Below are positions 20,791 to 52,259 of a stretch of 64,000 bases of DNA, in pieces. The notes beneath the pieces are model-generated. The model did not search any database, was not told the DNA's origin, and was given only the letters and a program-made list of their open reading frames with translations. This DNA comes from Psammoneis japonica. Lineage: Eukaryota. The stretch is taken from the NCBI GenBank assembly GCA_008632985.1, contig QPGO01000176.1, forward strand, positions 79,778 to 143,777. Direction: 5' to 3'. How positions within the stretch are numbered: position 1 is the stretch's first letter; the number at the start of each line of letters is the position of its first letter. The position numbers were made by a program, and so were the translations under genes.

Positions 20791-21189
20791 ACAAACTTAC
20801 GACGTTCGAATCTTTAGTTTCTCTGTACTAGAGAGTATAGTAGCTAGCTACTTCAGGATTGAGATGGCTCGAGCACACCCCCAGTGGCTCTGTCGATGGC
20901 TTTCTTCTCTTGCTCCGCCAGTTTTATTTAAAAAAAGATGCAGGCGATCAGCGACGAAATAGTCTGTCGACGACGAGCCTTGGGGCATGCTGAAACGAAT
21001 ACCTCAGCGTGGACCCCAGGCGAGAAGGGGATGCTGACGAGAAGACATCCAAAAGAAGGAGAGCAGTGTGGTGCAAAAACAAAATGATGACGTCAAAGTG
21101 TGCAACGGCATCGCAAGCGCTACGACCGCCATCGCAGTCCATTGACATGCGTGCAGAATAAATTACACGCAAGTGTGATTGCTGCATCG

Positions 21190-21536
21190 TGTGGGAAAGT
21201 AGCCAGAATTCTAAGATTCGTCTGCACTTTCAGTGATTAAAAGCTGTAATTGCGATACAACAATCAATCAGTAACTTTATTGTACCAAAAGTTGAGAGGT
21301 GATAATCAGTACGTTAGAAAGATTATGAGCAGTTTTTATGAGCAGATGCAGCTGCCATCTAAAGGAAACGCGAAGTTAAACAAGCGCGAAGCTAGGAACA
21401 AACATCGCATTCGTGACTCGGCTTCCGCGGGATTCGAGACTGAGCATCGCACACGGGGTTCGAATCTTGGATCTCTGATTTGAATCGTGGAGGTCCGATG
21501 TTGTTGTAAAAACATGCAAATATGAATATTGTCACA
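21190..21536 (-). repeat. 3' LTR of the young copia element
   Basis: TGTGGGAAAG...TTGTCACA, 347 bp; aligns without gaps to 27414-27760 with 17 substitutions; PPT GAAGGGAG on the minus strand at 21537-21544. Confidence 0.97.
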
Positions 21537-21579
21537 CTCCCTTCAACAATGTCGGGTGGAATGATGACTCGAAAACGTC

Positions 21580-24500
21580 TTACCACTTAAGGAGCGATTT
21601 CCTGTGTTTAACGAAGAGATTCTGTGGTAGAGGTTTGGTGAAAATGTCTGCAATCTGATCCGCCGTATCAATTGGTAGAATTGATATGAGACCTTTGCGA
21701 ACATGGTCTTTAAAGTGGTGGAGAGTGAGGTTGAAGTGTTTTGTCCGAGGACGCATCTTAGGCAATCTCGCGATCTCCAATGCTCCAGAATTGTCTTCAA
21801 AAGCCTTACAATAACAATGTACGACTGGTGTCTTGGAAGGGACATTATGACCGTGATCCATAAATTCTTGAATTAGGTTCATAATTGGGATGGCGCTTCG
21901 AAGACTTTCCGAAAGAGCGATAAATTCAGCTTCAGTAGTGCTGAGCGCGATCTGAGTCTGTAGCTTGGACGTCCAGACAATCGGACATCCTGCATAGGTG
22001 ATGACAAACCCAGTTCGAGATTTGGAAGTGCCGACGTCATCGGGTGCAGTCAGCTTATTCCAATTGCCCACAAAGTCCGCGTCGGCGTGAACTTCAAGGG
22101 ACTTGTCCGTTGAGGGCTGTAGTATAATACCTTCAGTTCTGGTTGACCTTAGGTACTTACAGAGCCATAGTACGGCTTCACCGTGAGAAACCTTGGGATC
22201 GGAAGAAAAGCGTGCGACTTGGTGCACCGCGTAAGCGACATCCGGTCGAGTGCTCTTCTCCAGAAAATTGAGCTTGCCGATGATGGATCGGTAATGAAAG
22301 CTCCCTTGGAAAGCAGGCTCACTCATATGCCTGTGGAGGATCTTGGAGGAAGGAGCAGGAGTAGGCTTATCTGGTAGTCTCTTTGGAATGTTGGCCATCT
22401 CCAGCATCTGATTGATAAGGTGAGGTTGGGTAAGTTTCATTCTGCCGTCTGGTAGTGTCTCGACGTTGACACCGAGATAGTCGTCCAGAGTGCCTTGATC
22501 ATCAATGTCAAAATTCTCATCTCTGACATCCTGTATCGCCTTGTCAACAGCAGACTTGTCAGGGGATGCAAAGATGCCGTCATCGACATAATGGATGAAA
22601 ATGACATTGCCACGAAAATGCAGGCACTCATCAACCGCCGATTGTACGAAACCAATCCTTAACAATCCATCACGTAAGTGTTCTTGCCATACTCTCCCTG
22701 CTTGCTTTTGTCCATATAAGTTCTTGAGCAACTTCAGAACATGAGTCTTGCCATTGCCACATTTTGTTTCAATTCCTGCAGGTAACTCCATGTGCATGTC
22801 ATGTTCGATATCGGCATGCGGATGCGCCAGAACGAAGTCGACTTGGCGTGTATGCCACTTCTTAAGAATGGCAATGATCAGCAGGAGCCGGACAGTGAAC
22901 CAGAAGACCACGGCAGAGTAGGTCTGGAAGTGGTTGACAGCATGCTCTTGCTTTCCGCCGTGCACATTAAGTCGGGACTTCCATTTGTAGACGGCTTGGG
23001 TCTTAACATCTCTTTTGCGCTTCATAGACCATGCCGAAGGGAGAACATCAACATCGTCAGGTACGTCCTCTCTTGGAATGAGTATCCAATGTTTCCTTTC
23101 AATGTGATCATTGACCTCCTTAACACAGGCCTTGATAAATTCGTCTCTGTCAGGTTCACGCATAGCCTGATCAAAGTACATGGTGTCGGGGTCCGAGCTC
23201 GCCAGAAAAGAGACAGGTGAGTCCATATCGTCCTGCAGTTTGTAATCATCCTCGTGCATCGCATCATAATATGCCTCTGCCTCTGCATTGTAGGAGACAA
23301 TGCCTTGAGCCCGTTGCAGTTGGCTCTCGCGCATCCTTTCGGTCGGGCGTCGTTGTCGGCCGGACCTGCTGGCACTGGGTTGACCCATAGTGCGCTGTGG
23401 GTCAGATGGTGCGTCAGAATCATCTGGAGGCGTGTATAGCATTTCATCATCCGGTTGGGCATTATCAAATGAGTCATCAGTGGTAGACGTATCAGTAGGA
23501 TGCAGCAGCTGAGACGGGACATCCGAATTCGGCTCAGGTGGTTCCGTTGTGGCAGGGACTGATCCCTCAACCGGTACGTCACTTGATTTCCCAAAGATGT
23601 TGAAAGCACTCCTTGTCTTGAGTTGTCTGAAACCTGTAATGCCTTGCCATTGTGAGAATGTAGGAGGATTCCCAGCAAAAGGGCGAACGGTCTCAAAGAA
23701 GTCGTCAAATTGTACGTGAAATTGCGGCGATACGAGTCCGGTCTGCAAATTCAAAACCAAGGTAACTGAACCTGCGTGTCTTGTTGATGGTCCCAAATTG
23801 ATTCCTAACCTTGCCCTTGGGTCCCACTTAGGCAGCCTACCTCCTCCCTGCAACCGGTTGTGCAAGGCGTAGACGGGACAGCCGAAGGTATGGTGTTGTT
23901 TGAGATTAGGCTGGACCTTGACGGACGAGAAACGTTCCAGCGGAGAAGAGCCGTCCTCGTGATTCGGTAAGTGATTCTTGATCTCGTTTGAGTTCCTGAG
24001 AGCGCTTGGCCATAAGTTCAACTCAATAGCCGTTGGCCATCTCACTTTTGCATGCAGGAGTTGCTTCCGAGATTGCTCTTGGAGGTCCCTTATTCTTTTC
24101 TCCGCGATGCCGTTTTGGAAGTGGGCGTTGACCCCACAATAGGATATTGTTTGCTGTTGCTTCTTGACGTCTTGTATGAAAGCATTGTCAGCAAATCTTC
24201 CATTGTCGGCGTGGCAGTGTTGAATACGGACGTGCATCCGGCGTGCGAATGCCTCGAAAGCGTGCTTGGCTTCGAGCGTCTCGGCTGAGGTAAGTCCTTT
24301 CTGCAAATATATGTATCCCAATCCGCTGAAATGATCAACAAAAATTGTCGCTGCTCGATGCCTTTGTTTCGTAGGTCTCCCTTTGAGCTGTGGGATCAAT
24401 CCAGGAGTAGGACTCTCGAGCTGGTCGACGGATGCGGCTTCTCCAGGCGAAGTTGCCAAGTGGATTCGTCGGTTCCGCTTGGACTTGGAGCGCCATGGTC

Positions 24501-27339
24501 GTTTCGTCATGGCACCGTACAGGCAGCCGGCACATTTTGGGTTGTGCACCTTTGTAAGGCGTTTCGGTAGAATGCCTGGGGCGGCCAATAGCTTTATCAT
24601 TTTGAATGACATGTGGCCCAGGCGGTAATGCCAACGCAATAGTTCACCCTGGTCATCTGTGGCAGCAAGGGCGTCATCATTTGGTATGATGTTGATGGGT
24701 TCCGGCAAGTCCTGCTGTACCTCCGGTGTCGTGAAATCCCTTGGGTTTTCCTCGTCTGAGTCTGAACGACTTGCTCCGTCTGTTGGCTCAAATAAGACAG
24801 GAGCATCCTCATCAGCAGTGTTGCGTGCGTCTTGCGTCTCGGAAGGACGTGTCTCGGATGGACTTCTGAAGACGTCTGCATCAATTGCAGCCTCGTCATC
24901 ATTCGCAGTGCTCTTGTCGTCTGGTGGTATGATGTGAGCTTGACAGGCCACGTGCTCGATAGTTTCGACATCGGTTTGTTCTTCGACAGCGGCTGCAAAG
25001 GTCCGGTGTTTGTTGTAACCGGGTGCGGAGCGCATCTTGGCGACATTAGAGTTGGCGGACCATGGAATCAGGCGATGGCACTTGCGCTGGTCCCACATCA
25101 GCAACAGTCCGTCGTCCCTGGTCCAAGATACGGTTCCGTGAGGCTCTGGCGTGTGGTCATCAGCTTGTTGGCTCCATTGCTGCGGGCAGAGAAGACAATG
25201 AGGTGAGTCCGGCACGAGTGGCGCGTCTCGAATTTTGATGCTGTGCACTCGTCCCATGTCGTCCTCAATTGCCCACTGCACTGTTCCTTCTCCCTTAGCA
25301 CGCAAGTGGCCCTTGACACCGAGTGCCACTTTGTTGGATTTGCGAAGAGGACCAATGAAGTGTGCCTCGTTGTTGGACATGGCGCAGGAAGAATGTGAGT
25401 CGACACCGATTGCGAATGAGTCCGAATCGCAAGTGGGCTCCGTTCGCTCGGGACGGTGTGGTGTGGTTGAGTTGCACGCTCTAACCGTCTTGTGTCGCGC
25501 AATGACACAGTGAGCCTTCTTGGTGGCCACTCTGGAGCGGTGACCTGGCCTCGTCGAGGTGTGATGCCGTGCACAGCACCTCGTCGTTGGCCGTCGCTGG
25601 TGAGTCTTAACTCGTCTTGTGCCTGGTTCAGCCAGGACATGTGAGATGACCCACTCACCCAGCGTCATTGCGGCATGTGACAGGCACTTGCACTTTTCTG
25701 AAGGAAGGGATGGCATCATGAATGGCAGCATGATCCAGATCGATGCTGCACATTTCATGACGCCAGCGACCGCTGTCAGAAGCACTGACACAGTGACGGC
25801 CATCTGCAAGGACAGCAGCAGTGTCAGAGTGAACCTGCAGAGCAGTCGCTCTTGATCCACTTCGTTTGGGATGGTGGAGATGGCACTTGCGAAGGAGACT
25901 TTCTTGTCCGACGTGTCTGTGGATGGAGCAGACTGTTGCTTGCGGAGTCCACAGCCTTGGTTGCCCGGATCATCAGGTGAGTGTATGACCCAAGCAGTGT
26001 GATGTGGGCACCAGTGATGGTCGCGATTGTTGACGCGCTTGTGACAGTGCTGATGACCGTTCACTGTCTTCTCAGGAGCGTCCTCCTCAGGCGGGACTTT
26101 CTTCCAGGCTTCGTCCGCTTTCTGTCTCTGACGTGGAGTGGTCTTGGTCTTCCTTGACCGTGTGCTTCTTTCCTTGGTTGAACCAGCCTTGGCCTTCAAA
26201 GCTTTGGACAGCTGAAGGTTCTGATCCTTGATGGAGTCTACCTTGGCTGCAAGCGCGACGATTTGCTCTTCAGCCGGTGATGGTGCTCCCCACTTCTTCT
26301 CGCGCTTGAGGTTGGCACATTTGTTCAGTGCCGACGTCATGATTTGCGTCGGCGTGAATTCCTCACCGTCGTCGCACCTGTCCTTGTGTGACATGATGCA
26401 CTTGACGAATGCTTCGTCAGCAGCTGCGGCGTGTCCTTTGAACAGGTTCATGATGAGGTCGTCGCACTGCTCTCCTCTGGCTTGGAGTCCGTCAACGTTG
26501 AGCTTGGCGTGCTTGTTGAGCTCTTCGATGTCCGAGTTGACAGCCGCCATGTGCGCATCCAGGCTTGACAAGTTCTCGCGGAAGCAGTTGGTGGCAGAGC
26601 GTGTGTCAACGATGGCCTTTTGCGCAAGCAGCTTGAAGAACAGTGCGCTGATTTGATTTCCATTGATCGCACGGGAATCTGTCTCAGCCAACATCTTGTC
26701 TCTTGCTTCCTCCGCAAGGGATTGAGAGATCGCCTCGGCCATCTGCACATTGTTCTGTGCTTGTCGCGCAGGCAGATTCGCGAAGGTGTTGGCGTGGGTT
26801 CTGACATCCTGTGGAGTGAGCAGTCCGCACTCGGAGATGAGATCTCGTGGAGTTCCATTCGCATCGGGAATGGCAAGTGTGTCTCCTGCCCCTGTTTTCC
26901 ATCCTGCCTCGGCAGCTCGTTGACTGAGTGTCTCACAAAACCATTTGAGACCTTCTGAGTCGCCGTTGAACTCGCGCGGCAGCGGTGCAGCAGCGGCGTT
27001 CCAAAGCTTGAGGCCTTGCGATGTGCCGCAGTCGATGAAGTTGTTGGGACGGTGTTGACCTGGAGTCAACGCGAAGATCGGCAGTGGTGGCACAGGTGCC
27101 AATGGTGGTCCACCTGGCGGGACTCCACCTGGCGGGACTCCACCTCCGCCTCCTCCTCCACCTCCTCCGCCACCTCCTCCTGGAGGCACACCGGGAGGAA
27201 CGACTGGGGGAGGTGCAGGAGCAACTGGAGCGGCTGCAGGAGCAGGTGCTGTTGCCGGAGCAGCAGCAGTGGCAGGAGCTGCAGCGGGAGCTGCAACAGA
27301 GGCAGCCAGAGCAGCCGCGGTTCGTGTCTGCGCGACCAT
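21580..27339 (-). CDS. Copia gag-pol polyprotein, open but mutated
   Basis: 1919-aa ORF: gag, protease (GVDSHSS), GAG-pre-integrase WHYRLGH..C..C, integrase (SVDQL, HADNG, QNGIAEKRIR), RT (LYGQKQAG, YVDD), RNase H (ADADF, STTEAE, EDNSGA, ADIFTKPL); integrase precedes RT. Confidence 0.93.
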   Translation of the reverse strand: MVAQTRTAAALAASVAAPAAAPATAAAPATAPAPAAAPVAPAPPPVVPPGVPPGGGGGGGGGGGGGGVPPGGVPPGGPPLAPVPPLPIFALTPGQHRPNNFIDCGTSQGLKLWNAAAAPLPREFNGDSEGLKWFCETLSQRAAEAGWKTGAGDTLAIPDANGTPRDLISECGLLTPQDVRTHANTFANLPARQAQNNVQMAEAISQSLAEEARDKMLAETDSRAINGNQISALFFKLLAQKAIVDTRSATNCFRENLSSLDAHMAAVNSDIEELNKHAKLNVDGLQARGEQCDDLIMNLFKGHAAAADEAFVKCIMSHKDRCDDGEEFTPTQIMTSALNKCANLKREKKWGAPSPAEEQIVALAAKVDSIKDQNLQLSKALKAKAGSTKERSTRSRKTKTTPRQRQKADEAWKKVPPEEDAPEKTVNGHQHCHKRVNNRDHHWCPHHTAWVIHSPDDPGNQGCGLRKQQSAPSTDTSDKKVSFASAISTIPNEVDQERLLCRFTLTLLLSLQMAVTVSVLLTAVAGVMKCAASIWIMLPFMMPSLPSEKCKCLSHAAMTLGEWVISHVLAEPGTRRVKTHQRRPTTRCCARHHTSTRPGHRSRVATKKAHCVIARHKTVRACNSTTPHRPERTEPTCDSDSFAIGVDSHSSCAMSNNEAHFIGPLRKSNKVALGVKGHLRAKGEGTVQWAIEDDMGRVHSIKIRDAPLVPDSPHCLLCPQQWSQQADDHTPEPHGTVSWTRDDGLLLMWDQRKCHRLIPWSANSNVAKMRSAPGYNKHRTFAAAVEEQTDVETIEHVACQAHIIPPDDKSTANDDEAAIDADVFRSPSETRPSETQDARNTADEDAPVLFEPTDGASRSDSDEENPRDFTTPEVQQDLPEPINIIPNDDALAATDDQGELLRWHYRLGHMSFKMIKLLAAPGILPKRLTKVHNPKCAGCLYGAMTKRPWRSKSKRNRRIHLATSPGEAASVDQLESPTPGLIPQLKGRPTKQRHRAATIFVDHFSGLGYIYLQKGLTSAETLEAKHAFEAFARRMHVRIQHCHADNGRFADNAFIQDVKKQQQTISYCGVNAHFQNGIAEKRIRDLQEQSRKQLLHAKVRWPTAIELNLWPSALRNSNEIKNHLPNHEDGSSPLERFSSVKVQPNLKQHHTFGCPVYALHNRLQGGGRLPKWDPRARLGINLGPSTRHAGSVTLVLNLQTGLVSPQFHVQFDDFFETVRPFAGNPPTFSQWQGITGFRQLKTRSAFNIFGKSSDVPVEGSVPATTEPPEPNSDVPSQLLHPTDTSTTDDSFDNAQPDDEMLYTPPDDSDAPSDPQRTMGQPSASRSGRQRRPTERMRESQLQRAQGIVSYNAEAEAYYDAMHEDDYKLQDDMDSPVSFLASSDPDTMYFDQAMREPDRDEFIKACVKEVNDHIERKHWILIPREDVPDDVDVLPSAWSMKRKRDVKTQAVYKWKSRLNVHGGKQEHAVNHFQTYSAVVFWFTVRLLLIIAILKKWHTRQVDFVLAHPHADIEHDMHMELPAGIETKCGNGKTHVLKLLKNLYGQKQAGRVWQEHLRDGLLRIGFVQSAVDECLHFRGNVIFIHYVDDGIFASPDKSAVDKAIQDVRDENFDIDDQGTLDDYLGVNVETLPDGRMKLTQPHLINQMLEMANIPKRLPDKPTPAPSSKILHRHMSEPAFQGSFHYRSIIGKLNFLEKSTRPDVAYAVHQVARFSSDPKVSHGEAVLWLCKYLRSTRTEGIILQPSTDKSLEVHADADFVGNWNKLTAPDDVGTSKSRTGFVITYAGCPIVWTSKLQTQIALSTTEAEFIALSESLRSAIPIMNLIQEFMDHGHNVPSKTPVVHCYCKAFEDNSGALEIARLPKMRPRTKHFNLTLHHFKDHVRKGLISILPIDTADQIADIFTKPLPQNLFVKHRKSLLKW

Positions 27340-27400
27340 GGTGACAGCAGAGTAAAGCAGAATCGAGAGCTTAAGATCGATTGACTTAACTTGTAGATTT

Positions 27401-27413
27401 CGCAGAGGAAGCG
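27401..27413 (-). promoter_or_regulatory. Putative primer-binding site complementary to the D-arm of initiator tRNA-Met
   Basis: Plus strand CGCAGAGGAAGCG(TG) abuts the 5' LTR and resembles eukaryotic tRNAiMet ...GCGCAGCGGAAGCGTG... Confidence 0.55.
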
Positions 27414-27760
27414 TGTGGGAAAGTAGCCAGAATTCTAAGATTCGTCTGCACTTTCAGCGATTGAAAGCTGCAATTGCGATGCAACAATCAATCAGTGACT
27501 TCACTGTGCCAAAAGTTGAGAGGTGACAATCAGCACGTTAGAAAGATTGTGAGCAGTTTTTATGAGCAGATGCAGCTGCCATCTAAAGGAAACGCGAAGC
27601 CAAACAAGCGCGAAGCCAGGAACAAACATCGCATTCGTGACTCGGCTTCCGCGGGATTCGAGACTGAGCATTGCACACGGGGTTCGAATCTTGGATCTCT
27701 GATTTGAATCGTGGAGGTCCGATGTTGTTGTAAAAACATGCAAATGTGAATGTTGTCACA
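27414..27760 (-). repeat. 5' LTR of the young copia element (hypermutated copy)
   Basis: Colinear with 21190-21536; 13 TpA sites converted to TG/CA. Confidence 0.97.
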
Positions 27761-27858
27761 CATCGCACTTCTGGTCTTTCCGCTTCTGTTGCATGGAGGT
27801 TCAAAGCGTGTTTCAAAAAACTTGAAACACCATTGTCAAAAGCCGCCATTGATTCGGT

Positions 27859-30800
27859 TGAACTGTTTGCCATGTGGTGATGTTTTGTGTCATGAATTTG
27901 TGTGTAGAACACAATGTAATTTAGCGACAATGAGGATTCGACGTGAGTGCTGAGTCGAGCTCACTTCTTGAAAATAGTAGCACGATGTTACACCTTTTCT
28001 TTTAGTCTATTCCCTAGGTTCCTAGTGCACGTCTTCACAGGGTAATTTATTCACTTTATCACAGCCATATGCCGCATGTAGTGACAATATCATAGTATTG
28101 ATGATTTCGCTTGCGATTGTTTCGCAACAACAGCTTTCGTTCCGCAAGGTCAGGGATGACGAATGAACATCTACGAGCACAAGACGGTGCTCGTGCTTGA
28201 CGAGTTGGTTACTCCCGGGTGTGGTTCAACTATGGTGCGCATTGACAACTACAGTGTCGACCATTCTGATGTGTCTCACAGCGAACACACACGGACACAG
28301 AGCGCAACCCATGGATCTGGGGACGCCATTTCCATTCCGAAGTCATCTCGCGGAGGCAACGCGCGCGTGAGCAATTTGAAATCGCTGGGTGATGCGGCAC
28401 AACGTCAGTCAGTCGCTGAAATTGCATGTCATGTGCAGACACAAAACATCACAACGCTGCACAATTCATGATGTTGTGCTTTGCACTGGCCACTGGCATC
28501 GATCAAGTGGATCGTAGGAACGTTCTTAGTTCGCTGCACAAGTCACGGCAGTCTCATTGTGCCGGCAGACCCATTGGCAATGCAAAACTGGCTGAACAAA
28601 CGACAATGAAAAAGCGCGCATCGTGCTCACTTTTCACACAATTGTGAGTTTTTTGACCACACGCACCACCGACACCTGCCAAAACAGCACCATGGCGGCC
28701 ATTGCAGCTGTGCGAGCCGCGCGCCGTTGCCCAGGCTTCATGGACGCTGGTTCCGTGGCCCTGGCCAATGAGCAGGGAATCCACTCGGTCGACGAACTGC
28801 TTCACTTGGACGACCATGAGGACGTGACCTCACGCAAGGCCGCTCGCCGCCTTGGAGGAGCTGCTCCTCCAGCAGACCCAGCAGCTCCACCCCAACCCAA
28901 CTTGGGTGCTGCTGTCTCTCTCCATGCAGAGATGAGTCTAAAGCTTGCTGCTTGTGCCACTCGCCACTGCTCCCGCATCTCCCATGCTCCACCTGTGAGG
29001 TCCTGGACACCCTGCCCAACATCTTTGAGAAGGACTGGACGAAGATGATGGAGTCTGTTTCAGAGCACCTTCACACCTGCCGCAGTGAAACCAAGATGCC
29101 GCTTGCCTGTGTTGTTTGCAATGAACCTGCTGCACCTGCTGAGGCCGATGACGACCAGGACAACTGCTGCGGGGATGCTGTTGCCAAGATGATTGCTTGT
29201 GAATCCCATGCCATGACTGGGGCAGATCCCCAGCCCACTGAAACCTTTGTGGTGTGCAACCACAAGGTTTGGGAGATCACAGAGCAGGTGTTGCCAGGGA
29301 GCACTTGTGCTGGGCTTGTGTCAAGTCAGCACAATGTGCACAGGATGGCAGGACAGCCTGTCAAAACCTGCACGATCACTTCCTTGGCCCCAACAACATG
29401 GACAACATGGCTGGTGCAGCCAAGAAGTGCCTTGCAGGCCTCTCACACCATGGGGAGAAGTGCAGCTGGAACTTTGAGCATTGCACACGTGTTCATGTGG
29501 AGCAGCACACCATCCTTGATGGACTCAGGGGGAGCATGGCTGCACCAGCATTGACAAACAATCCAGAGTTTGCCATCTGTTGGAGAGAGCGTCAAAGATC
29601 CGAGAAGCTTGACTCAGTTAAGATGCAGATTGTGGCCAGTCCCAACCTGCACAGCAACTTTGACACATGTGTGGTCCTGTGCAAGGACTTCCTCAAACAG
29701 CCCAAGCCCAAGGACTCCAACTCTTCCTTGTGTGTTGCAGCTCTGAAGGCTCAGAAGCGCAAGCAGTGCAAGAAGGATGTCATCCATGCACAGGATGCAG
29801 AGGACAAATGCTGTCCCAATGAAGAGCATGGCTGGTTCTCGCCCAAGGCATGAAAGCGGCTTAAGACTCTGCACAAGAATGACCACGATGGTTCCAAGAT
29901 GGATGCCATGAAGCAAGTCAAGGCTCTTGCCAAGAACCTCCCTGCTCAAAGACACCATGACCAAGAACGGGCATGATGAGAATGGTGGTCTTGAGCCTGG
30001 ATGGAAGAAGCAGGAGATTGACAGCCTGCAACGGTCATGCATCTCAGCCCATTGCAGACCTTGCACCTGACTCAGACCACCATGACGGCAGCCACACGCA
30101 AGGAATCTCAGTCTGAGATTGATGGTCATGCAGACACAAGTGCATCAGGCAGGTGTGCTTTAATTTTACTTGACTGTGACCACCCAGTTGACATCACAGG
30201 ATGCAACCCCAACCCAGGCTCTGGCAAAAGCTTGCGCACCGTCAGTGGCGCCCTGATGTGCACGGATCCTGCCATGGGCCAACAACACATCTTGGCAGTG
30301 CACCAAGCCATCCATGTCCCGCATCTACAGCACAACTTGTTGGGCCCCATTCAATTGTGGCTGAATGATGCAGGCCCAAACTTGAAACCCAAGTTCCCAC
30401 TGTCAAAGCCCAACAATCAATCACATGCAATGATGTTGGAAGACATGGATGACTCAGATGAGTCAATCACACCACTGGAACTCCATGAAGTTGTGAGCTG
30501 CTTTGCCACCTCCAAACTGACTGTTTCAGAGTGCAAGGCTGCTGTGCAAGATGGCACAGTCCAGGAACTCACCTGTGAAACCCCCGCATGGGACCTGCAG
30601 GAGTCGGACTTCCCGGCCAGGGAGGGTGCCATGACAGATCCCCTTGGCTGCGTTCCTGAGATCGGGGACAATGCATGTGCTCAAATGTGGATTGTGAGCA
30701 CAAAGCTCTTGCGAAACGCAGCACAAGAGACCTCCAACGCTCTTGGGAACAAGCCACTGTGAAAAATCTTGAACGCGTGTGATGACTGTGTGCTGCTTCT

Positions 30801-33800
30801 TGCATCCATTGGCCTCTCTTTGCTCAAGACAATGAAACAGGGCTTGAAGGCAAAAGCGGAACAGTTGGCCAAGAATTGGTCCATCAGCCTCAAAGATGCA
30901 GAAAATGCAGCCAAGGTCACTGCTCAATGTGGAGCCCAAACTGTGTTGCACCCGGCGCTGTCACATCAATTCCACACCAATGACCAACAATTGCACCACA
31001 GACGCATTGCAAAAGAGATGCACTCTGACACCCTCTTCTGTCTGTCAAGTCAAGATGTGGCAATGTCTGTGTGCAGGTTTTTGGTGTGGCCAGTGGCTGG
31101 GCACGCGTCTGTCCATTGAGGTCCAAAGGGCTTGTCCACGAGGCACTGTCCCCACTCTTTGCCCAGGATGGGGTGCCACATGCCATGACAGCAGATGGTG
31201 CAAAAGAAGAGATGCTTGGTCAGTTCAAGTCAAAAGCCAGGGAGGCTGATTGCTGCATTTGACAGACCGAGCCTCACATTCCTTGGTCCAACTTTGCTGA
31301 AGGCACTGTTCGCAAGCTCAAGCGAGGTGTCGGGGATGGATGGTCAAGACTCAGGCACCCAAACATCTTTGGGATGATTGCCTTGAACTTGAAGCCTTGA
31401 TCCACTCCAACACTGTGCATGACATTTGCGAGCTTGATGGCAAAGTGCCGGAGACAGCAGTGTCAGGACAGACAGCCAACATTTTGCACACATGCAAGAT
31501 CGGATGGCATGACTGGGTCATGCACAGGCACCCAGGCCCCAGTGGGGATGCAGGACCAGCAATGACCGCCAAGATGCTCAAAGAGAATGGGCAAGTTGTC
31601 CACAGATCCTCCTGCCAGGCTCTCACCCCAGAGGAACGGCATCACAAGACACACCTGGCGTTGAGGGAAAAATTCCATGCAATGGTGGAGGCCAAGCTTG
31701 GTCCCGGGATGGCCATCAGCAACATTGATGACCCCGATGCGATCACTCCCACCTTTGATCTGCACAAGGACGACTCAGGACAAGACCCATCTGGTGCCCT
31801 GGAGGCCGACACTCCACCTGACACAGCTCACAATGTCTGCATGAACGCCAAAGTTTTGCTGCCACATGGGGACATGCACCAAACCGGCAAGATCAAATGG
31901 CGGAAGCTGAACCCGGACGGAACACCGGCAGGACAAGCCAGCGCCAATCCCACCCCAGACACGCTCGTCCATGAGGTGGAATTCCCTGATGGTCAAGAGG
32001 CCGAACCAGTGGCTGATGTCATTGCCAAGAACATGTTCGCCCAATGTGACAATTGGGGCAACCAGCATCCATTGCTGGATGCTGTCGTGGACCACAAGAC
32101 CAATGAGCATGTCATTCAGATGCAGGACATGGTCTCCCAAGACAGTGGGGGGCACTGATTCACTCGGAAAATGACCAAAGGATGGCACCTTTGTGTTCGT
32201 TGGAGAGACGGCACCACCTCTTGGGAGCGACTTGCAGATTTGAAAGATTCAAACCCTGTGGAGCTGGCTGAGTGCACCAGAGTGTGTTCTGTTGAAGACA
32301 AACCAGCCTTTGCTTGGTGGGCTCCACACACCTTCAAGAAGTGAGCAGATTGTGGCCGCCATCAACAAGCACTGCCACAAGCAGACTCACAAGTGTGGGA
32401 TGCATGTTCCCAAGACTTGTGAAGAAGCCGTCGAGATTGATGAGGCAAATGGGGACCACCAACAATGGCAGAATGCCATTGACAAGGAAATGGGTGTGGT
32501 CAAGAAAGCCTTTGTTTTCATTGATGATGATGAGAAGCTGGCAGGGTGCCAGCACATCAGATGCCACTTGGTCTTTGATGTCAAACTGCAGGACTTCAAG
32601 TGCAAGGCCAGCTGTGCAGCAGGGGGACACACCACTGAACCTCTGGCTGCACTGACATGTGCCAGTGTTGTTTCTTGTCAGAGCGCAAGGACAGAGTTCA
32701 CTCTTGCCACCCTCAATGACCTGGAGGTTAAGGCCACAGATGTCGAGAATGCCTGCATCACCACTCCCAACAGCAAGAAGACAACTGCAACTCCAGGGCC
32801 AGAGTTCAGACCTGATGCAGGCAAAAGAGCAATTGTCCAGCATGTCCTTTGTGGATTGAAGAGCGCTGGTGCTTCTTTCAGAAATCATTTGGCCTCATGC
32901 ATGAGACATCTGGGATGGTTGCCATGCCTGGCAGATCCAGACATCTGGATGAAGGAAGAGGTCCAACCCGACGATGGGTTCCGGTGCCATGCCTGCGCAC
33001 TGTTGTGTGTCGATGATGCTTTGATGGTGCACCATGATGCCACATGTGCTCTCAAGGAGATCAACCGATGCTTCAAGATGAAGCCCGGTTCAACAGGTGA
33101 TCTTGAGATGCATCTTGGAGCCAAGATTTGCAAGACAGAGCTGCCAAATGGTGTCCATGCTTGGGGCATGAGTTCCAGCAAGTGCGCCCAACAGGCCATC
33201 AAGAATTCAGAGGTGCGTCTTCATGCAAAGTGCCCGGGGATGATGTTGCCATGCCAGGCAATTGCTCCCTTCCCACGTGACTGCCCGAGGTTGATGCCAC
33301 TCCTGAGCTTGACACTGATGAAGCTCAGTTTTGCCAGTTGCAGGCAGCTGTTCTGCAATGGACAGTCAAACTTGGACGTGTGGATCTCATTGCTGAGGTT
33401 TCTGAGCTTGCCTCCTCCCTTGCAGAAAAGACACAATGCCAGGCTGGTGTTTGATCTGACACATCCGGAGATTGACATGCCTGACTTCAAGGAATGTGAC
33501 TGGAAGTCAATTTGTGGGGATGTCAAGGAGGCGATTCCCAGCAATGTGCCAATCCCTCTAGACAAGGAGGTTGATCTGCACCTGTTTGTAGACTCTGATC
33601 ATGCCAATGACAAGTTGACAAGGCATTCACACACAAGCTGTTTCATTTGCTTGAACATGGCTCTGGTTGCATGGTTTTCCAAGCGCCAGAGCACCGTTGA
33701 GACTTTGGTCTTTGCTGCCAAGTTTGTTGCCATGAAGCAGGGCATGGAAGCCTTGCGTGGTCTGAGACACAAGCTGCGAATGATGGGCACACCATTGTCT

Positions 33801-34364
33801 GGTCCATCCTGCATCTGTGGCAATGGCATGTTCATCATTCACAACACACAGAGCCCTGAGTCCACTTTGAAGAAGAAGTCGAACTCGATTTGCTGCCACG
33901 CTGTTAGAGAGTCAGTGGCAATGGGTGAATCCCTCACTGGACACATCCGATTGGAGTGCAATCCGGTGAACATTGCCACCAAGATCATGTGCAGTGGCAT
34001 GAAACAAGATGGACTTGTGAGCATGGTGCTTCACAATTTGTCAAGTCCTGAGCCAGTTCCCTCAACCCACTGGGTTTGTTGCAGGTTGTTGGGGTTCCCT
34101 TGTTGCCTCTGTGCAGCTGAATGTGACCAGACTGTAAATTGAGTCAAGCCAACTCAGTGTCTGCCTCGTCAACTTGAGGGGACTGAACAATTTACCATGT
34201 GGCAATGTTGCACATGAATTTGCATGCAGAATGTAGAATTTGGTGACAATGAGGACTCGATGTGAGTGCTGAGTTGAGCTCACTTCTTGAAAACAGTGGC
34301 ATGATGTTGCACCTTTTCTTTTAGTCTGTTCCCCAGTGCACATCTTCACAGGGCAATTCATTCA
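27859..34364 (+). mobile_element. Older degenerate Ty1/copia element (second family) with LTRs at ~27859-28053 and ~34184-34364
   Basis: Related TGAA...TTCA LTRs, PPT TTGAGGGGAC before 34184, gag (HDHFLGPNNMDNM), protease (EIDGHADT), integrase, RT (LCGLKSAG, LLCVDD), RNase H (FVDSDHA, LKKKSNSI); many stops and frameshifts; no matching TSD found. Confidence 0.88.
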
Positions 34365-35479
34365 AAGTTGTGCAGATGAAGTTGCCTCAAGAGCACCACC
34401 AACGATGGCTCTTAAGTTTTTCCCATTTTTAGGGTGGATCAACACACCAAAAAAAGAAAAAGGGGGGATGCACTGCAGCGACAACAAGAAAACTTGTGAG
34501 TCAAGCATGTGCCAAATCAACACTCCCTGTGAATGAAGACTTGTCGCGCCATGTTGCTGACGCAACGGAGCCCCAAATCCCTGTGTTCCATCAACAGCAT
34601 GATGTGCTCAGCAAGCTTTTGCTGCTTTTCAGACAAATGCTGCTCTGTCTGTTTCAACAACCATGTTTTGATGGGCCAAGCAAACAGACAACTTCCTGCA
34701 CTCAAAGGCTTGAGAGTGACATGGACTCAAGGCCGGAGAGATGCACTTGATGTGCACCCTGACCTCCAGACTTAACTGGCAACACCCACACCACCAATTT
34801 CAACAGCACAAGAGTGCTGAAGCAACTTTGACAAAAAAAAAGAGAAGCCACCAGCATCGGAGTTTAGCTCATCCATGGCTCCATTGGATGCTCTGCCAGC
34901 ATTGTCAGTCACACTCCTTGAATGATGAAGCAAAGAGAAGTGCTCGATCCTTCTCTGCATTGGAGTGGACTCAGGTTCAACGCTCTGCAGATGGGGCCCG
35001 TTGCCCTTCTCCTTTGCCTGTGGCACCATCATTGTCCCGGCACCAATCACTGACATTTTGTTGCGGCAATTTGTGCTTGCATCAGTGTGGACAGATTTTT
35101 GAAAAATGGCAATGTTTGAAACCAGAAGAAAATGGCAGGAAACAAATGTTTTTTTTCACTGTCACATTTTGTGTGGATCATGTGAGCCCCATGACATCAG
35201 CAGAACACACACAAACAAACAAGCACCAAACTCCAAGATCATTTGTTTCCTTCTTGCAGCAACCTTCAAGCACACACACCCACACCTGCACACACAGCAT
35301 CATTTCATTGTTTTGCTGACCACAACACATGGGCAACAGGCAGTGCTGGATTTTGTTGCTGACACTTTTCCTGCCAAATTTTCCAACAAAACATGCTTTG
35401 CAGTGTTGTCCTGAGAAGTTCATGCACAAAAAGAGAGAGGTGAGATGAACTCCAGTTTTTCTGCCATTTGCACTTGTTG

Positions 35480-35900
35480 CTCACTGCTTGCGCTGCACTT
35501 TCCATTGTTTCTTGACAGAGTCAATGAACCCATTGCATGGGAGCCCACAATTGTGTGGAAGACAAAGTTTCTTTTGTCTGAAGTGGTGTCACTTGATTTG
35601 GTTGCATGTGTGGCCAATTTGCTGTGACAACAACAGGATGCAGGAGAGCCTTTTTACATTCTGCCAGTTGTGCAAACTCCCATCAAGCCGCCATTGTGCC
35701 ATGCTTTTCCAAAAAATGAGCCCATTGCATGGGAGCCTGCAATTGTGTGGAAGACAAAGCTTCTTTTGTCTCAAGTGGTGTCACTTGATTTGGTTGCATG
35801 TGTGGCCAATTTGCTGCAACAACAGGATGCAGAAGAGCCTTTTTGCATTCTGCAAGTTGCACAAACTCCCATCAAGCCGCCGTTGTGTCACGCTTTTCCA
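35480..35900. repeat. ~200 bp tandem duplication within a TpA-depleted block
   Basis: AATGA.CCCATTGCATGGGAGCC..CAATTGTGTGGAAGACAAAG...CCCATCAAGCCGCC at ~35523 and ~35715. Confidence 0.85.
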
Positions 35901-36362
35901 TTGATCTGCATTTCATGTTTGGGATGTGACCTTGCAGGTGGCAGCTTGATTGGCTTGAAAAGCATGCACTGTTCTGCAGCACTTCTTTTGGCTCTCAGCC
36001 TTTTGGGCTGTTCGACGCAAAGCAAAGCATTGCTTGGTGCTCCACCTCCTCTTTTGTGTGTTGGCATGCCAAGCAAACAACTCCTTGGAGCCACCACATG
36101 AGGCAAGATCATTGTGCCAGTGCAGAACAGCACAGCAGAAACCTTCCTCTGTGACACTGTTTGATGCTGTTTGCAAGGAAAAGAACAGACAAAGTGGTCA
36201 CAGCAAAGATTGGTTGGATGTTGCAACAAGCAATCCAGGAAGATCAATGAACTTTTCTCCCTTGTGGTTTTGTTTTTGAGGAAGAGTGGCCTTGGGTCCA
36301 TTTTTGGACTCACAATGTTCTGCCTTTGGGGTTTTGCAATGCAAAGGGCCTCCATCTGCTGT

Positions 36363-39100
36363 TGAATGAATTGCCCTGTTGTCACAAGCACCAGGGACAA
36401 GACCAAAAGAAAGACTTGCGACATTTTTGCTGCTTTTCCAGAAGTGAAATCTAAACCTGAGGAACAGCTCTGTGACCAATCGCCAATGACGAGGCACACA
36501 AAACTGACTCAAATTGATTGCATGGCAAATTCTTCAGTCCCCTCAAGTTGATGAATTGAAGAGTCGGCTTGATCCAATTTGCTCTCTGACCATGTTTGGT
36601 CACTCAAACATGACAAGGAAACCCTGGTGGCCTGCACCAGAAAAACCCCAAAAGGGGCAAATGAACCCCATGTGACAGACAACTGGTCTTCACAGATGTT
36701 GTGGAGGATCATCCCCACAAGCCCATCTTGCTTCATGCCACCATGCATGATCTCAGTTGTGAGGTCTGCCAGATTGCATTCCAAGTGAATGTCCAGTCAG
36801 TGACTCACCCATTGCCACCAACTCCCTTGCGGTGTGGTGACAGATGAAGCTCGACTTCTTCTTCAAAGCAGACTCTGGACTTTGTGCACTGTGGATGACT
36901 GACATGTTGTTCTCAGGGATGTGGGGTGGGCCAGTCAAGAATGGTGTGCCCATCATCCTTGACTTGTGTTGCAAGCAGTGCAACTGCTCCATGCCTTGCT
37001 TCATGGCTGCAAACTCCACTCCAAAAACCAAGGTTTCAATTGCACTTCAGTGCTTTGAAAACCATGCTGTCAAGGCCATGTTTGTGTGAATGAAGAAGCC
37101 AGTGCGTGAATGCCTCCTTGTCAAGAACTTGTCATTTGCACGATCCAAGTTGACGAACAAGCACAGATCAACCTCCAAGCCTGGAGGCTCTGGTGCATTG
37201 GGTGGGATGGCTTCATGTGCACGTCCACATGAAATGACTTCCAGTCACATTCCTTGAAGTCAGACATGTCAATGTCGGGACGTGTCGGGTTGAACACCAA
37301 CCTGGCATCATGTCTTGCCTTGAGGTGTCCACAGACATGGAAGAAGACAGCCTCAAGATGACCCTTCCTGGGCATGGCAAGACACAAGGTTGTGAGCTCA
37401 GAAACCTCCATCATCAGATCAATGTGTCCCAGCTCCACCATCCATTGCAAGACACCTGCCTGCGACTGGTGGAGCTGGGCATCCTCTGCCTCAAGCTCAA
37501 GTGACACATCTAACTCAGGATGACAATCCTGTGGAAATGGAGCCAACACCCAGGATGGCAACATCTGTCCAGGGTGGCGTTCGTCCAGATGCGCCTTCAC
37601 ATTCTTGACAGCCTGCTGGACACACTTGCTGAAGCTGATGCCCCATGCATGGACACCATTTGGCACTTGTGCTTCTCAGATCTTGGCACCCAGTTGCATC
37701 TCAGGGTCGCCAATTGAGCCAGGCTTCATCTTGAAGTGATGATCCAATTTCTTGAGTGTCCTCAAGGCATTGCTTGTGGTGCACCATCAGTGCAGTGTCC
37801 ACACACAGCAGCACATGTGCGCAGTGCCAGAACCCATCCTTGATTCGGACACTTCCTTGAGCCACACATCAGGATCTGCCAGGCAAGGCTTCCACCCAAG
37901 ATGATGCATGCAGGAGGCTGGGCAATTCCTGAAGGCTGTGCCTGCACTCTTCAAACCGCAAAGCGTGCACTTGACTGTCACATGCCTCCCTGCATTGTGT
38001 CCAAACTCTTGGCCTGGAGTCGTTGTGATCTTCTCACTGTCAGGTGCAGCAACACAAGCATTTTCAATGTCAGCTGCCTCAACCTCTGAGTCATTCAGGG
38101 CAGCAAGAGTGAAGGCAATCTTCACACTCTCACATGACACAATGCTTGCACATGCCAAGGTGCTGGGAGTGTCAGCGGCATGTCCACCAGCTGCACAGCA
38201 TGCCTTGCACTTGAAGTCTTGCAGCTTTGTGTTGAAGACCAAGTGACATCTGATGTGCTGGCATCCCACCAGTTCCTTGTCATTGTCAATGATCTCAAAC
38301 ACCTTGTTTGCAATGCCCATTTCCTTGTCTGCAGCATCTTGCCACAGGTGGTTGCCATTTGCCTGGTCAATCTTGACTGCCTCATCGCACATCTTGGGAG
38401 TGCACATCCCACACTTGTGCACCCATTTGTGATGCCACTTTTGTTCATTGCAGCAACAATCTGCTGCTGTTTCTTAAAGGCACATGGAACCCACCACACA
38501 AAGGCTGGTTCATCCTTGATTGATTGGGCTCTGGCATGCTCAGCTGGCTCAACCAGGCTGGATTCCTTCAAGTCTGCAATGCGTTCCCAAGTTGTGGTTC
38601 CATCCTTCCAGCAAACACAAAAGTGCCATCCTTCAGTCATCTTGTGCATGGTTTGGTGTCCTCCACCACTGTCCTGCAGGAAAGTGTCATCCTTCTGGAC
38701 TGCATGCCCATCAGTCGTGTGATCAACAAGAGCACCCAGAAGCAAGCACTGATTGCCTTTGTTGTCACATTGTGCAAACATGTTCTCAGCTGTGATGTCA
38801 GCTGCAAACTCTGCTTCCTGACCATCAGGCATGCACAAGCATCTGCAATGGGATTGGCGCTGGCTCTGCCCACTGGTGTTCCATCTGAACTGGGCTTGCA
38901 CCGCTTGACCATCCCGGTTTGTTGGGTGTCCCCGTGAGGTGGCAATGCTTCTGAGTTTGCACAAACATCAAAAGCAGCATCAGGCACATCGTCCTTGCCG
39001 GGTGCACTCACAGGAGCATCCTGGTCAGCTTCATCCTTGTGCTGATCAAAAGCAGGAGCAGTGGCATGGGGGTCATCAACATCTCCAACATCAGAAACCC
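36363..39100 (-). mobile_element. 5'-truncated degenerate copia (RT-RNase H plus 3' LTR 36363-36536), related to the 27859-34364 family
   Basis: Minus-strand fragments VGCQHIRCHLVF, LCGLKSAG, ADPDVW, DMSDFKECDW, ALKKKSSFI; PPT TTGAGGGGAC followed by a TGAA...TTCA LTR. Confidence 0.85.
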
Positions 39101-39419
39101 GCAGAAAAGGCCACGAGTCACAGGTCATTGAACCCCCCCATCTCATGGAGTGTGCACACACGCAAACATTGGTTGACCCCCTTCCAGACTGAAATTGACA
39201 TTCACTCATTTGGAGCACAACATTTTCATTTATTTTCACCATGCTGATTGGTGTGTTTTGTGCTTGTTGCTCCCAGATGTGTTTTGTTCAATGTGCACTC
39301 ATTGACTTGAATGCCAACACACCAAGCAACATGGCAGCATCGCTCCACCATCTCTTGACGATTGCATTTCCTTCCAACTGAGACCTGTTCATTTTCACAT
39401 TGTGCACGCATTTCCACCA

Positions 39420-39720
39420 AAAGCGCTGCATTTCCGTCTTCATGATGCACGTCAATCATTCAGCAAAATTTTCACCTTTTTCTGTTTCCCCCTCAAAACC
39501 CATCCTCACCATCGACTCATGATTGCATCTCTGAACAGTTGAATTTCATTCCAGCTGAAACATGTTTGTTTTCACATCAGACATGGCATTGCCGCCAAAA
39601 GCACTGCATTTCCATCTTCATGATGAACGTCAATCATTCAGCAAAATTTTCACCTTTTTCTGTTCCCCCCCCAAAAACCCATCATCACTGTCGACTCATG
39701 ATGTTCCGTTTGCAGCATTT
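39420..39720. repeat. ~180 bp tandem duplication
   Basis: CTGCATTTCC.TCTTCATGATG.ACGTCAATCATTCAGCAAAATTTTCACCTTTTTCTGTT at ~39426 and ~39604. Confidence 0.8.
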
Positions 39721-42282
39721 GTCCAACCAATCATGCACAGGGCATTTGTCCCTTCCACTTGTGATCTGCAGATCCAATCCCCTGTGTTTTTTTGTGAATC
39801 AGTGCAGAACCGTGAAAGCAGTGTGACGAGGAGCCCGTGGCTTCTCTGCACAAGACTGCACTGCAGGCATCATCAAGAGCTGCCAAACAACTCTGCCCCA
39901 CCATGACAATGAAGTGCGACAGCGTTGATGCTCATTCCACCTTTTGCGAAGCATGTGTGGTCACCACAAAACAACAACCAACAACAACAAAAAAGAACAA
40001 GCTCCTTCCTTTTGACATGAGCGGCAAGTTTGTGATTGATTGTTGAGATGGCTGATCAATGAATTGGCAGCAAAACACACCTTCAGCATGGAACACATTG
40101 CATCTGATGATGCACATTCATTGTTGTGGTTGTCTCATGTGACTCACTGGTGATTTTTGCTCTGCGAGACTCAGAAATTGACCGAACATGCCACGTCAGG
40201 GTCATTGCGGTGGATGACTTGAGAGGTTGGTGAAAGCACATTTTCCTCATGCACGAGCCATGCAGAAATCATGCAGAAAAATGGATGCTTCCGTTTGTGT
40301 CATCACTTTGAATCTGTCCCGCTTTTTTCAAGTCAAGAGATGTCACAACACAAAAAGGGGAGGGCCAGCTTGCAATGGCGTGCAAAGCAGTGTGGCCAAG
40401 GCAAGTGCAGACAAATGCACAACGCCACAAAAAACAACAAAGAATTGTTGCAACTGTGCCTCAGAGAGGGGATGTGGTTGTTGTTGAGAGCCAACAAGTT
40501 CTTCAAGGAGCTGGGTTGCAGAGATCAAATGCAACATCACGAGTGAGCAATTTGGTTGATGGGAAGATTTGTGTGGAATGATTTCAGGCAGCCACTGAAA
40601 GCAAGCAGGGGAGGACTTCACAACTTGGGTGACAAGGGGGAGACCCCACATGGTGAGCTGTGCCAAGGTTGGCAAGCTGGAGCTGATGGTGGCTTGGCAG
40701 ATGTGAGCCCATTGTCACAATTTCATTGTTGTCCAACTCAAGCATTCTTACATTGCAGAAGCTGCACTTTAGACAGCCGCTTGCACATTTCGTGTGGGTG
40801 CAAACTTCTTGAATTTTGCCGTGCTGATTGGATCTGCTCACCTGGGTTCGAACTTGTGGACATTTGTTGGAGCCAGGTGCACGACATTTCATTCGAACCA
40901 ACGGACATTTGTTGGCTGGTGCGGACATTCATTTGTTTTTAACCACACCAATTTATGGTGGACTGGTGTGATTCGTGTTAAACAGCCATGATTCACAAAC
41001 AAGTGCGTGTGTGGGCACTCACAAATGCTGTCTGCAACAGTGTCCATTGGTCAGACCACAAGACAATTCATGGAAACGGGCCTCTGATGAGTGCCGGAGT
41101 TGAAGACAAGGCTCAAATGCAGACTCTCACTGCAGCGCATGGCACTCCCCACAGTGCGCTGATGTCGACTGCATGCTGACAGACTCCAAATTCCCTGGGC
41201 AATTTTTCACTCCCCCCCATTCAAAGCATGCCAAACAGTTGCCCTCTGCACACTGGAAACACCCTGTTCTTCCCCGATGGTTTCACGAGGGCTTCCCAAC
41301 AATGCTGTCCCCCCAAGGCAGGCATGTCCCGTTTTTGAGACAGAGAGATGCGTGTGCCACTCTGTGAATCACACCATGACAGGATTTAATCAAGATTGAC
41401 TGACTCAACCAAATCCGACCAAACGACTTGAAAAATGTGCCATGACAGGATTCAATCAAGATTGACCACCTCGACCAAATCCAACCCAACCACTTGAAAA
41501 ATGTGACACCCAGGATTCAAGCCCAGGTCATCAAGCAACCGGTTGCCAACCAAACCATTCACCATGCAGCTCAAGTTGAGAGGCTTTTTGCACACAGTGA
41601 CTGGATGTGTTGCAGCCAGAGAGTGACGTGCCAGCATTCAACTCTTCTTCGAATTCTGTCAGCAGGCACACAGCCATGTCTGGATGCTTGCCTTGAAAGT
41701 GCTTGCCAGCAGTTTGTCGACTTGCTCAATGTGTCTGCACTGTCATGCTTGGTTGAAAGTTTGAGCAACAGCGGACAGATGCCACCAGCAAAAGCAGCAC
41801 TCAAAGCAGGCAAATCATCTTTTGACAAAGCCGCAAAAAGTGATGGCCCGATCTTGTCATCTGCAGCTGTTCATTCCAAAATTGTTTGAGGTTTGCTCTC
41901 TGACTGCACTGTCATGATTGAGTGACAAGGTTGTTGTCTTTGCATGTCTCTGTGCATTGCTGATGTCAATCACAGGTGCACCCATTGACAATGACACGCT
42001 CCATCGTTTCTTGGATGCGCTTCCAACAAGACTGGGGCTGTTTGTGTCACTGGCAGAGGGCACTCTCTCCAGCAAAAGGATTTCACCATTGCTCATCAAT
42101 GCACAGGTTGATGAATGCTGCCGCCTTGTTCGAAATGTGGAATTTGACTGTCAGAGCGAGCCCCTCTCTCCAATTTCTCGTGTCATTTTCGGGAGACACA
42201 CGGACCGTGTCGGAGGGAGTTTCGGCCGGGAGACATGCGGACAGTGTCGGAGGGAGTTTCGGGCGACACACGGACTGCGTTG

Positions 42283-52200: not shown

Positions 52201-52259
52201 CCTCAGACGTGCGGCGTTGACTGTGCGGGCTTGGCATTCGGAAACTGCAAACAAGATGG

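Follow-up and report, generated by a model that had tools for sequence, protein, structure and literature searches.

Post-integration loss of TpA to TpG and CpA in copia-type retrotransposons of the diatom Psammoneis japonica

Fungal repeat-induced point mutation (RIP), which requires RID/DIM-2-type enzymes and a premeiotic stage, changes C:G to T:A, mainly CpA to TpA, raising the TA content of its targets and making TAA and TAG stop codons. APOBEC3 and ADAR act on cDNA or RNA before integration, marking one strand and both long terminal repeats (LTRs) alike, and AID, in the somatic hypermutation of immunoglobulin genes of B cells, deaminates C within WRC motifs. Here we analyze a 64,000-nucleotide stretch of the diatom Psammoneis japonica (assembly GCA_008632985.1, contig QPGO01000176.1, positions 79,778 to 143,777 of the forward strand; hereafter the window), in which a young copia-type retrotransposon (21190-27760, minus strand) and an old degenerate one beside it (27859-34364, plus strand) have lost TA dinucleotides to TG and CA over much of their length. 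The change resembles RIP in that it occurs in place on DNA, is dinucleotide-specific, consists of transitions on both strands of repeats, saturates and has regional limits; its direction is the opposite. A first-pass annotation of positions 28690-34040 had described transposon proteins disabled by systematic conversion of Tyr to Cys or His instead of by stop codons.

The closest counterpart was described for the chlorarachniophyte Bigelowiella natans in a preprint of April 2026 (Mettrop et al., bioRxiv 10.64898/2026.01.13.699255). In mutation-accumulation lines of this alga, two integrated viral regions acquired 231 new mutations, of which 230 were A>G or T>C, all of them on TpA according to the authors, at a rate of about 6e-7 per site per generation. 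The accessible text of the preprint also reports 124 clusters of TpA-depleted, CpA- and TpG-enriched 1-kb windows in the B. natans genome and an enrichment of reverse-transcriptase and DDE domains among the TpA-depleted genes. An ADAT2-like adenine deaminase is proposed there, not demonstrated. The same text uses none of the words tyrosine, stop codon, CpG, LTR or retrotransposon.

As far as the accessible text allows a comparison, the two cases are alike in that TpA becomes TpG or CpA on either strand and in that the change is regional. The hosts differ, a rhizarian chlorarachniophyte there and a diatom (a stramenopile) here, and the targets identified here are LTR retrotransposons. The B. 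natans process is directed at foreign DNA; in the window a mobile-DNA target is seen for three copia copies, the other blocks being unrecognisable. The window retains 0-3 TA per kb where the B. natans giant-virus region retains 3.3% TpA dinucleotides, and CpG is co-depleted in the older blocks here, unlike in B. natans. The evidence also differs in kind: ours is comparative and comes from one assembly, that for B. natans from mutation-accumulation lines with an approximately 1000-fold raised rate. In the literature searched, this preprint is the only source for a genome defence by TpA-specific A:T-to-G:C change, and the diatom would represent the second major algal lineage. No report of TpA hypermutation in diatoms was found in the freely accessible literature, supplements excluded, including term checks of PMC2806351, PMC8147415, PMC9998398 and PMC6604790; this looks like the first diatom case of a kind of hypermutation described only months earlier in another lineage.

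Dinucleotide counts per kb divide the window into ordinary stretches, with 25-66 TA per kb, and blocks with 0-3 TA per kb, in which TA observed/expected is 0.00-0.07 and TG and CA are 1.6-2.15 times as frequent as expected. A map of TA positions contains 42 TA-free gaps of at least 200 bp, against a median TA gap of 19 bp. The loss is clustered in five blocks of 1.7-14 kb with sharp limits. Two are CG-poor and without assigned content by Pfam searches on their frames (5548-7858 and 11027-15219); the third is the 5' part of the young element (25608-27353), with two internal TA in 1.73 kb and no depletion of CG; the largest (28250-42291, 14 kb) contains the region annotated first; the fifth (47162-52280) is CG-poor. 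A further TA-free stretch begins at 63397. The right edge of the largest block illustrates the sharpness of these limits: no TA occurs in 41387-42291, and 22 occur over the next 270 bp. Together the blocks cover about 27 kb of the 64 kb, far beyond 28690-34040, so the change is not tied to transposon proteins, as the first-pass annotation had it, but is a regional DNA process.

Apart from 25608-27353 and the initial 750 bp of 28250-42291, the blocks have a CG observed/expected of 0.02-0.41. Within 28250-29000 TA is absent and CG is normal (12-18 per 250 bp); from about 29000 onward CG falls to 2-6 per 250 bp. The old element may have a 5' end of younger, recombinant origin, or CG loss may be uneven along it. 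The low CG of the older blocks, with their excess of TG and CA, resembles decay of 5-methylcytosine at CpG, which however cannot remove Tyr codons or TA, and which here forms a second, slower layer.

The young element is complete. Its two LTRs of 347 bp each, with TG...CA ends, lie at 21190-21536 (3' LTR, TGTGGG...GTCACA on the plus strand) and 27414-27760 (5' LTR), and identical CATCG pentamers at 21185-21189 and 27761-27765 form a 5-bp target duplication. An open frame of 1919 amino acids (21583-27339, minus strand) encodes the polyprotein, with the Pfam domains gag_pre-integrs (residues 892-942), SH3_retrovirus (1143-1213) and RVT_2 (1425-1652, E = 2.8e-32) in this order and YVDD at 22579-22590 (minus strand). 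The integrase preceding an RVT_2-type reverse transcriptase (RT), the TG...CA LTRs and the 5-bp duplication identify a Ty1/copia element. Word depth in sequencing run X1, about 1000-2300 over the young element and 50-140 over most of the old one, suggests that the young family comprises some 20-40 copies.

The first third of this polyprotein contains no Tyr, as had been noticed for its first ~770 residues: none occurs in residues 1-774, the first of the 23 in total being residue 775. The N-terminal parts of 38 homologues contain 3.72% Tyr (478 of 12854 residues), which gives P = 1.8e-13 for none in 774. In the pol half, 17 of 30 conserved Tyr are kept, six are replaced by His and one by Cys. 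For gag, the column test comprised 50 conserved columns and two Tyr columns, together with an alignment stretch judged by eye; in a word-based homologue search, residues 1-800 of the young polyprotein brought up no relatives. With its open frame, matching duplication, LTRs identical at 330 of 347 positions and Tyr-free first third, the young element illustrates how a damaged element can look intact, as the first-pass annotation had inferred.

The LTRs of a retrotransposon are identical at integration. Those of the young element differ at 17 of 347 positions, and all 17 differences are transitions. At 13 of them the 3' LTR reads TA where the 5' LTR reads TG (seven) or CA (six), and the reverse does not occur; 15 of the 17 have A:T in the 3' LTR and G:C in the 5' LTR. 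The unaffected 3' LTR contains 19 TA, the 5' LTR only 6. The per-base change at LTR TA positions is approximately 45 times that of other LTR bases, so that the divergence, 4.9% overall, falls to 1.3% (4/309) outside TA sites. This asymmetry indicates that the change happened in DNA after integration.

Contigs of runs X1 and X2 allowed comparison with other copies of the young family; a third run, X3, contributed none. The 40 best-supported differences were examined; 268 further ones fall outside this set. The window has TG or CA where other copies have TA at 26 of the 40 and where they have CG at six; transversions account for 18 of the 298 differing places in run X1. The two outcomes, TG and CA, are about equally frequent, 7:6 in the young LTR and 14:12 among sites differing from other copies. 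Runs tests (z = +0.9 and +0.8) found no strand-coordinated runs of TG or CA outcomes, and there is no robust strand bias. Taken with the LTR comparison and with the two old copies described below, this places the process in integrated DNA, where it hits either strand and each copy separately.

Along the young element the loss is strongly graded. TA per kb is 17 in the 5' LTR, 54 in the 74-bp leader (4 sites), 1.2 in the first 1.73 kb of the frame, 10.5 in the next 0.86 kb, 30 in the following 1.5 kb, 38 in the last 1.7 kb of the internal region and 55 in the 3' LTR; the density climbs back gradually from 25608 to about 24750, and 15 TA targets are left in this partly hit zone and the 5' LTR. 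CG is normal along the whole element, and in its 5' part TA observed/expected is 0.02-0.15 while CG observed/expected is 0.79-0.90. Since the 5' part is stripped of TA while CG is normal, TA loss is separable from CG loss and much faster. The process thus saturates, is regionally bounded and removes TA before CG. The profile is shaped like that produced by AID: the leader is little changed, the first 1.7 kb of the transcribed body is changed almost totally, the background is reached by about 3 kb, and both strands are hit. This resemblance is one of profile shape only, in one element; it hints that an enzyme might be recruited to silenced or transcribed element bodies.

Over 23055-26982, contigs of run X2 (labelled 'DNA?'; depth ~210-630) lack at least 13 segments, each 70-113 nt long. 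Of the 13 listed, nine have GT..AG borders on the plus strand, which is antisense to the young frame. These contigs look like spliced antisense transcripts of the young family, which could bear on RNA-guided targeting.

The old element is recognised by its LTRs with TG...CA ends (27859-28053, 195 bp, and 34184-34364, 181 bp), a sequence resembling a primer-binding site after the 5' LTR, a purine tract before the 3' LTR, and a pol region that matches homologue P0123 colinearly over residues 6-1300 of the latter. The flanks, TCGGT and AAGTT, contain no matching pentamer. Compared with the 5' LTR, the 3' LTR has lost 9 TA and 5 CG, with two changes in reverse. The young and old elements could not be treated as one family: the best BLASTP E value between them is 0.061, so they belong to different copia families and a nucleotide comparison between them is impossible. 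Their 5' LTRs adjoin back to back, with 98 bp between them.

A second copy, likewise degenerate and belonging to the family of the old element or to a sister family, lies at 36699-39079 (minus strand), with 68-72% DNA identity to 31725-34036; its RVT_2 match (E = 2.1e-05) is below the Pfam cut-off. Between these two copies, 96 aligned dinucleotides read TG in one and CA in the other, a ratio to concordant sites of 0.34, whereas six other classes of double transition number 3-15 each, with ratios of 0.02-0.10. Such a pattern would be expected had the two copies resolved shared ancestral TA or CG sites independently.

The peptides quoted in the first-pass annotation as lacking expected Tyr are all present in the window, although two fall outside 28690-34040. 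LLCVDD is found in the RT frame of the old element (33000-33017, plus strand), HDHFLGP at 29371-29391 (plus) and LCGLKSAG at 32847-32870 (plus), the last also at 37940-37963 (minus) in the second copy. VGCQHIRCHLVF as written belongs to the second copy (38234-38269, minus), the old element reading AGCQHIRCHLVF (32544-32576), and ISECGLLT belongs to the young element (26815-26838, minus).

The RT/RNase H frame of the old element (32244-34142, plus strand) is 632 amino acids long and contains no Tyr, with 6.6% Cys and 4.7% His. Pfam gave no match for it even at E <= 10; phmmer gave 9826 matches to copia-type polyproteins (best E = 4.6e-162). From these matches, 40 homologues with normal Tyr content were drawn, and columns with at least 60% agreement among them were taken as conserved. 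At the 12 conserved-Tyr columns the old frame has Cys in eight, His in three, Met in one and Tyr in none, while 137 of the 208 columns with another conserved residue are unchanged (Fisher's exact test, p = 4.9e-6). The codons at the 11 Cys and His replacements are all TGY or CAY. The first-pass annotation had allowed that active homologues might naturally carry Cys or His at these positions; this is not the case. Its polarity, TA to TG or CA, agrees with the Tyr held by the homologues, with the TA of other copies at 26 of 40 sites and with the 13:0 asymmetry of the young LTRs.

Altogether 83 conserved columns are changed. In 44 the change is a single transition from the consensus: TA>TG/CA in 15, CG>TG/CA in 16 and another transition in 13. 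The frame also shows R>C/H/Q, P>L, A>V, D>N and E>K, as in CpG decay. Against a profile built on the 40 homologues the frame scores 539.0 bits, and 601.4 bits once all its 42 Cys are converted to Tyr; the control replacements gave 565.6 (C>F), 549.5 (C>W), 531.7 (C>S) and 472.2 bits (S>Y). The rise in score on back-mutation which had been expected of such a frame was thus obtained, in this crude form, for Cys. It was not obtained for His: blanket conversion of His to Tyr lowered the score from 539.0 to 508.0 bits and was rejected as a restoration, which indicates that many His are genuine or derive from Arg codons through CpG decay.

The first-pass annotation had stated that the process makes no stop from a sense codon, and this follows from the codon table, by which TAA and TAG can become only TGA, CAA, CAG or TGG under TA>TG/CA. 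In the blocks TGA accounts for 93-98% of stops in all six frames; this and the erasure of TA set the window apart from RIP, with its C:G>T:A changes, TpA gain and new stops. Stop density is 2.4-2.8 per 100 codons in the blocks and 3.3-4.1 elsewhere, which accounts for the many long overlapping frames in TA-free DNA. The old element, on the other hand, was not disabled by missense instead of stops: its pol region is in at least eight frame pieces, each break being a TGA or a frameshift, and a separate CG-to-TG/CA decay has affected it. CGA>TGA through CpG decay is a sufficient source of these TGA stops. The missense changes may inactivate the element proteins. The observation made in the first-pass annotation is thus confirmed, and its interpretation was right at the core and understated in scope.

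We regard it as probable that these retrotransposons have undergone a post-integration DNA hypermutation of TpA to TpG or CpA, followed in the same blocks by a slower loss of CpG. In such a process A:T would be changed to G:C at TpA on either strand of an integrated element until TA was nearly gone, and a slower change of CpG to TpG or CpA would follow. The replacement of Tyr by Cys (TAY>TGY) and by His (TAY>CAY) would be the coding read-out, and a freshly hit element would keep its frame open, since TA>TG/CA creates no stop from a sense codon. The chemistry could be that of an enzyme which is directed to silenced or transcribed internal regions of elements and deaminates adenine at 5'-T-A in DNA to inosine, copied as G at replication; we give adenine deamination an about even chance. 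TadA and ADAT2 act on A34 after U33 of tRNA, a context that fits TpA.

Several observations weigh against a general hypermutation of mobile DNA or narrow its base. The content of 5548-7858, 11027-15219 and most of 47162-52280 is not recognisable, so that transposon targeting is seen only in the three copia copies; among 64 frames of at least 100 amino acids in the TA-free blocks other than those of the copia copies, 63 had no Pfam match and one had a weak, sub-threshold MSP match. Part of the last block, 51584-51943 (minus strand), is 68% identical to the gag region of the old element (29341-29707). The 5' LTR of the old element and about 200 bp of its leader (27859-28250) are normal in TA and CG, a partial echo of the profile along the young element that does not fit a simple targeting of whole elements. 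They belong to an island of normal TA and CG (27353-28250) that separates two TA-free zones and also includes, from the young element, the leader and the 5' LTR with its partial loss of TA, as well as the 98-bp spacer; 22 TA lie within 27905-28250. The old 5' end may have been protected or may be a younger recombinant piece, the second being permitted by the mismatched flanks. At 39 of the 83 changed conserved columns the change is not a single transition and represents ordinary family divergence. A TA-free kilobase occurred in none of 79 related copia loci from metagenomes, where the minimum TA observed/expected was 0.23; this set, the best-scoring 80 of 502 loci, is biased to intact copies, one of its search patterns contains Tyr, and it is uninformative on prevalence. 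Finally, the basis is sequence alone, that of one window.

An in-place DNA process other than adenine deamination is the alternative that survives best, although it seems unlikely. It could consist of a thymine modification at TpA, of the 5-hydroxymethyluracil or base-J type, or of a repair or replication bias in heterochromatin yielding T>C. The data fix only the dinucleotide and the symmetric A:T-to-G:C outcome, so that A>G on one strand and T>C on the other are indistinguishable, and the loss of TA and CG in the same blocks would fit a shared chromatin-dependent cause. We know, however, of no natural pathway from T to C. The two losses are also separable in time in the 5' part of the young element, and in B. 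natans, according to the accessible preprint text, the TpA changes arose without CpG changes (bioRxiv 10.64898/2026.01.13.699255).

That the pattern is a sequencing or assembly artefact, with modified bases at TpA and CpG in silenced DNA misread as TG or CA, appears improbable. In its favour, the affected steps are the two self-complementary pyrimidine-purine dinucleotides and the blocks resemble silenced repeats; moreover, the only supporting run, X1, has no library type on record and may be the source sample of the window, and is thus not independent with regard to base calling. Its contigs, built from exact 31-letter words and spanning 28776-35610, nevertheless reproduce the TA-free stretch closely, pieces of 362-1073 nt showing 0-9 differences each. 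A column-wise consensus of miscalls on two strands should create CG and leave TA, and both are depleted. Relatives poor in Tyr and rich in Cys and His also occur in other public assemblies. P0008 (1481 aa), which is related to the young element and comes from a public contig of 66 kb, contains 1.2% Tyr, 3.1% Cys and 5.6% His; at its 32 conserved-Tyr columns 14 are Cys and three His, with a 5'-to-3' gradient of 7/10, 10/17 and 0/5. Tyr is below 1% in four of the best 150 relatives of the old frame (P0171 is among the Tyr-poor public proteins). In addition, the B. natans lines, sequenced on Illumina, show the same process as real mutation according to the accessible preprint text (bioRxiv 10.64898/2026.01.13.699255).

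Editing of RNA or cDNA before integration, in the manner of ADAR or APOBEC, and its fixation by reverse transcription can be given very little credence. Clustered deaminase-type transitions in LTR elements are common to those systems and the window; ADAR-type enzymes share the 5' U/T preference (cited in the accessible text of bioRxiv 10.64898/2026.01.13.699255), and the contigs of run X2 resembling spliced antisense transcripts make double-stranded RNA possible. Such editing predicts identical LTRs, yet the two young LTRs differ at 13 TA sites, all in one direction, and both strands were hit in equal numbers (7 TG : 6 CA); the outcomes at shared ancestral sites differ between the two old copies, and the block edges are sharp against host DNA. 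It is hardly credible that the TA-free state is original and that the rest of the genome and the 3' half of the young element gained TA by a RIP-like change of CpA to TpA, a polarity which the comparison of two LTRs alone would leave open: in host genes and in the 79 metagenome elements no kb window falls below a TA observed/expected of 0.23, homologues contain 3.7% Tyr, including that of the catalytic YxDD, and most copies of the family carry TA. The LTR asymmetry and the homologue data together contradict both pre-integration editing and this reversal.

If hypermutation of integrated DNA is accepted, a wider reading can be put forward, which we hold to be possible but rather less than evenly probable: diatoms and chlorarachniophytes may share a dedicated defence against newly integrated mobile DNA, in which TpA is rewritten. 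It would act on the 5' transcribed body first, be guided by transcription or RNA in the manner of somatic hypermutation, proceed about two orders of magnitude faster than other decay, and kill by removing Tyr while frames stay open. Were this so, TA-free blocks would be a general and easily scanned mark of silenced invaders in these algae, and tractable diatoms would offer a route to the first natural eukaryotic DNA adenine deaminase. The question of the enzyme may become testable if this species, or a relative bearing the signature, can be transformed; for laboratory diatoms CRISPR knock-outs exist, as stated in the accessible text of PMC9998398.

The window can be viewed as a natural time series, with a fresh hit in the 5' third of one element, an old element that lost first its TA and later its CG, and two copies whose sites were resolved independently of each other. 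Open frames with matching target duplications would lead to overstated counts of active elements, and dating by LTR divergence would be inflated, 13 of the 17 young LTR differences being due to the process. Hit elements can escape profile searches, as the old RT frame does in Pfam, and the approximately 30% fewer stop codons in TA-free DNA favour spurious gene calls.

The host genes in the window are long and uninterrupted and code for a PI4-kinase with a PH domain, Duc1, an ATP-grasp protein and a collagen-repeat protein. For the ATP-grasp protein, all eight species-named homologues among the 120 listed matches are diatoms, the best 58% identical, and the nearest Atlas cluster consists mostly of Bacillariophyta, an assignment with a very high score; the nearest Atlas clusters of the PI4-kinase are oomycete. 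On these genes the host is very probably a diatom. No tRNA genes or Rfam matches were found in the window. Two tandem duplications were observed, one of 185-bp units with 97% identity just outside a TA-free block (46475-46835) and one of 189-bp units with 91.5% identity inside the large block (35523-35900). The collagen triple-helix frame (60125-62557, plus strand; 810 aa, Pfam Collagen E = 1.2e-99) contains internal repeats that are 68-74% identical, and the stretch has a GC content of 0.62 with CG and CA observed/expected of 1.64 and 0.48. Its low TA stems from the collagen repeat and is unrelated to the hypermutated blocks.

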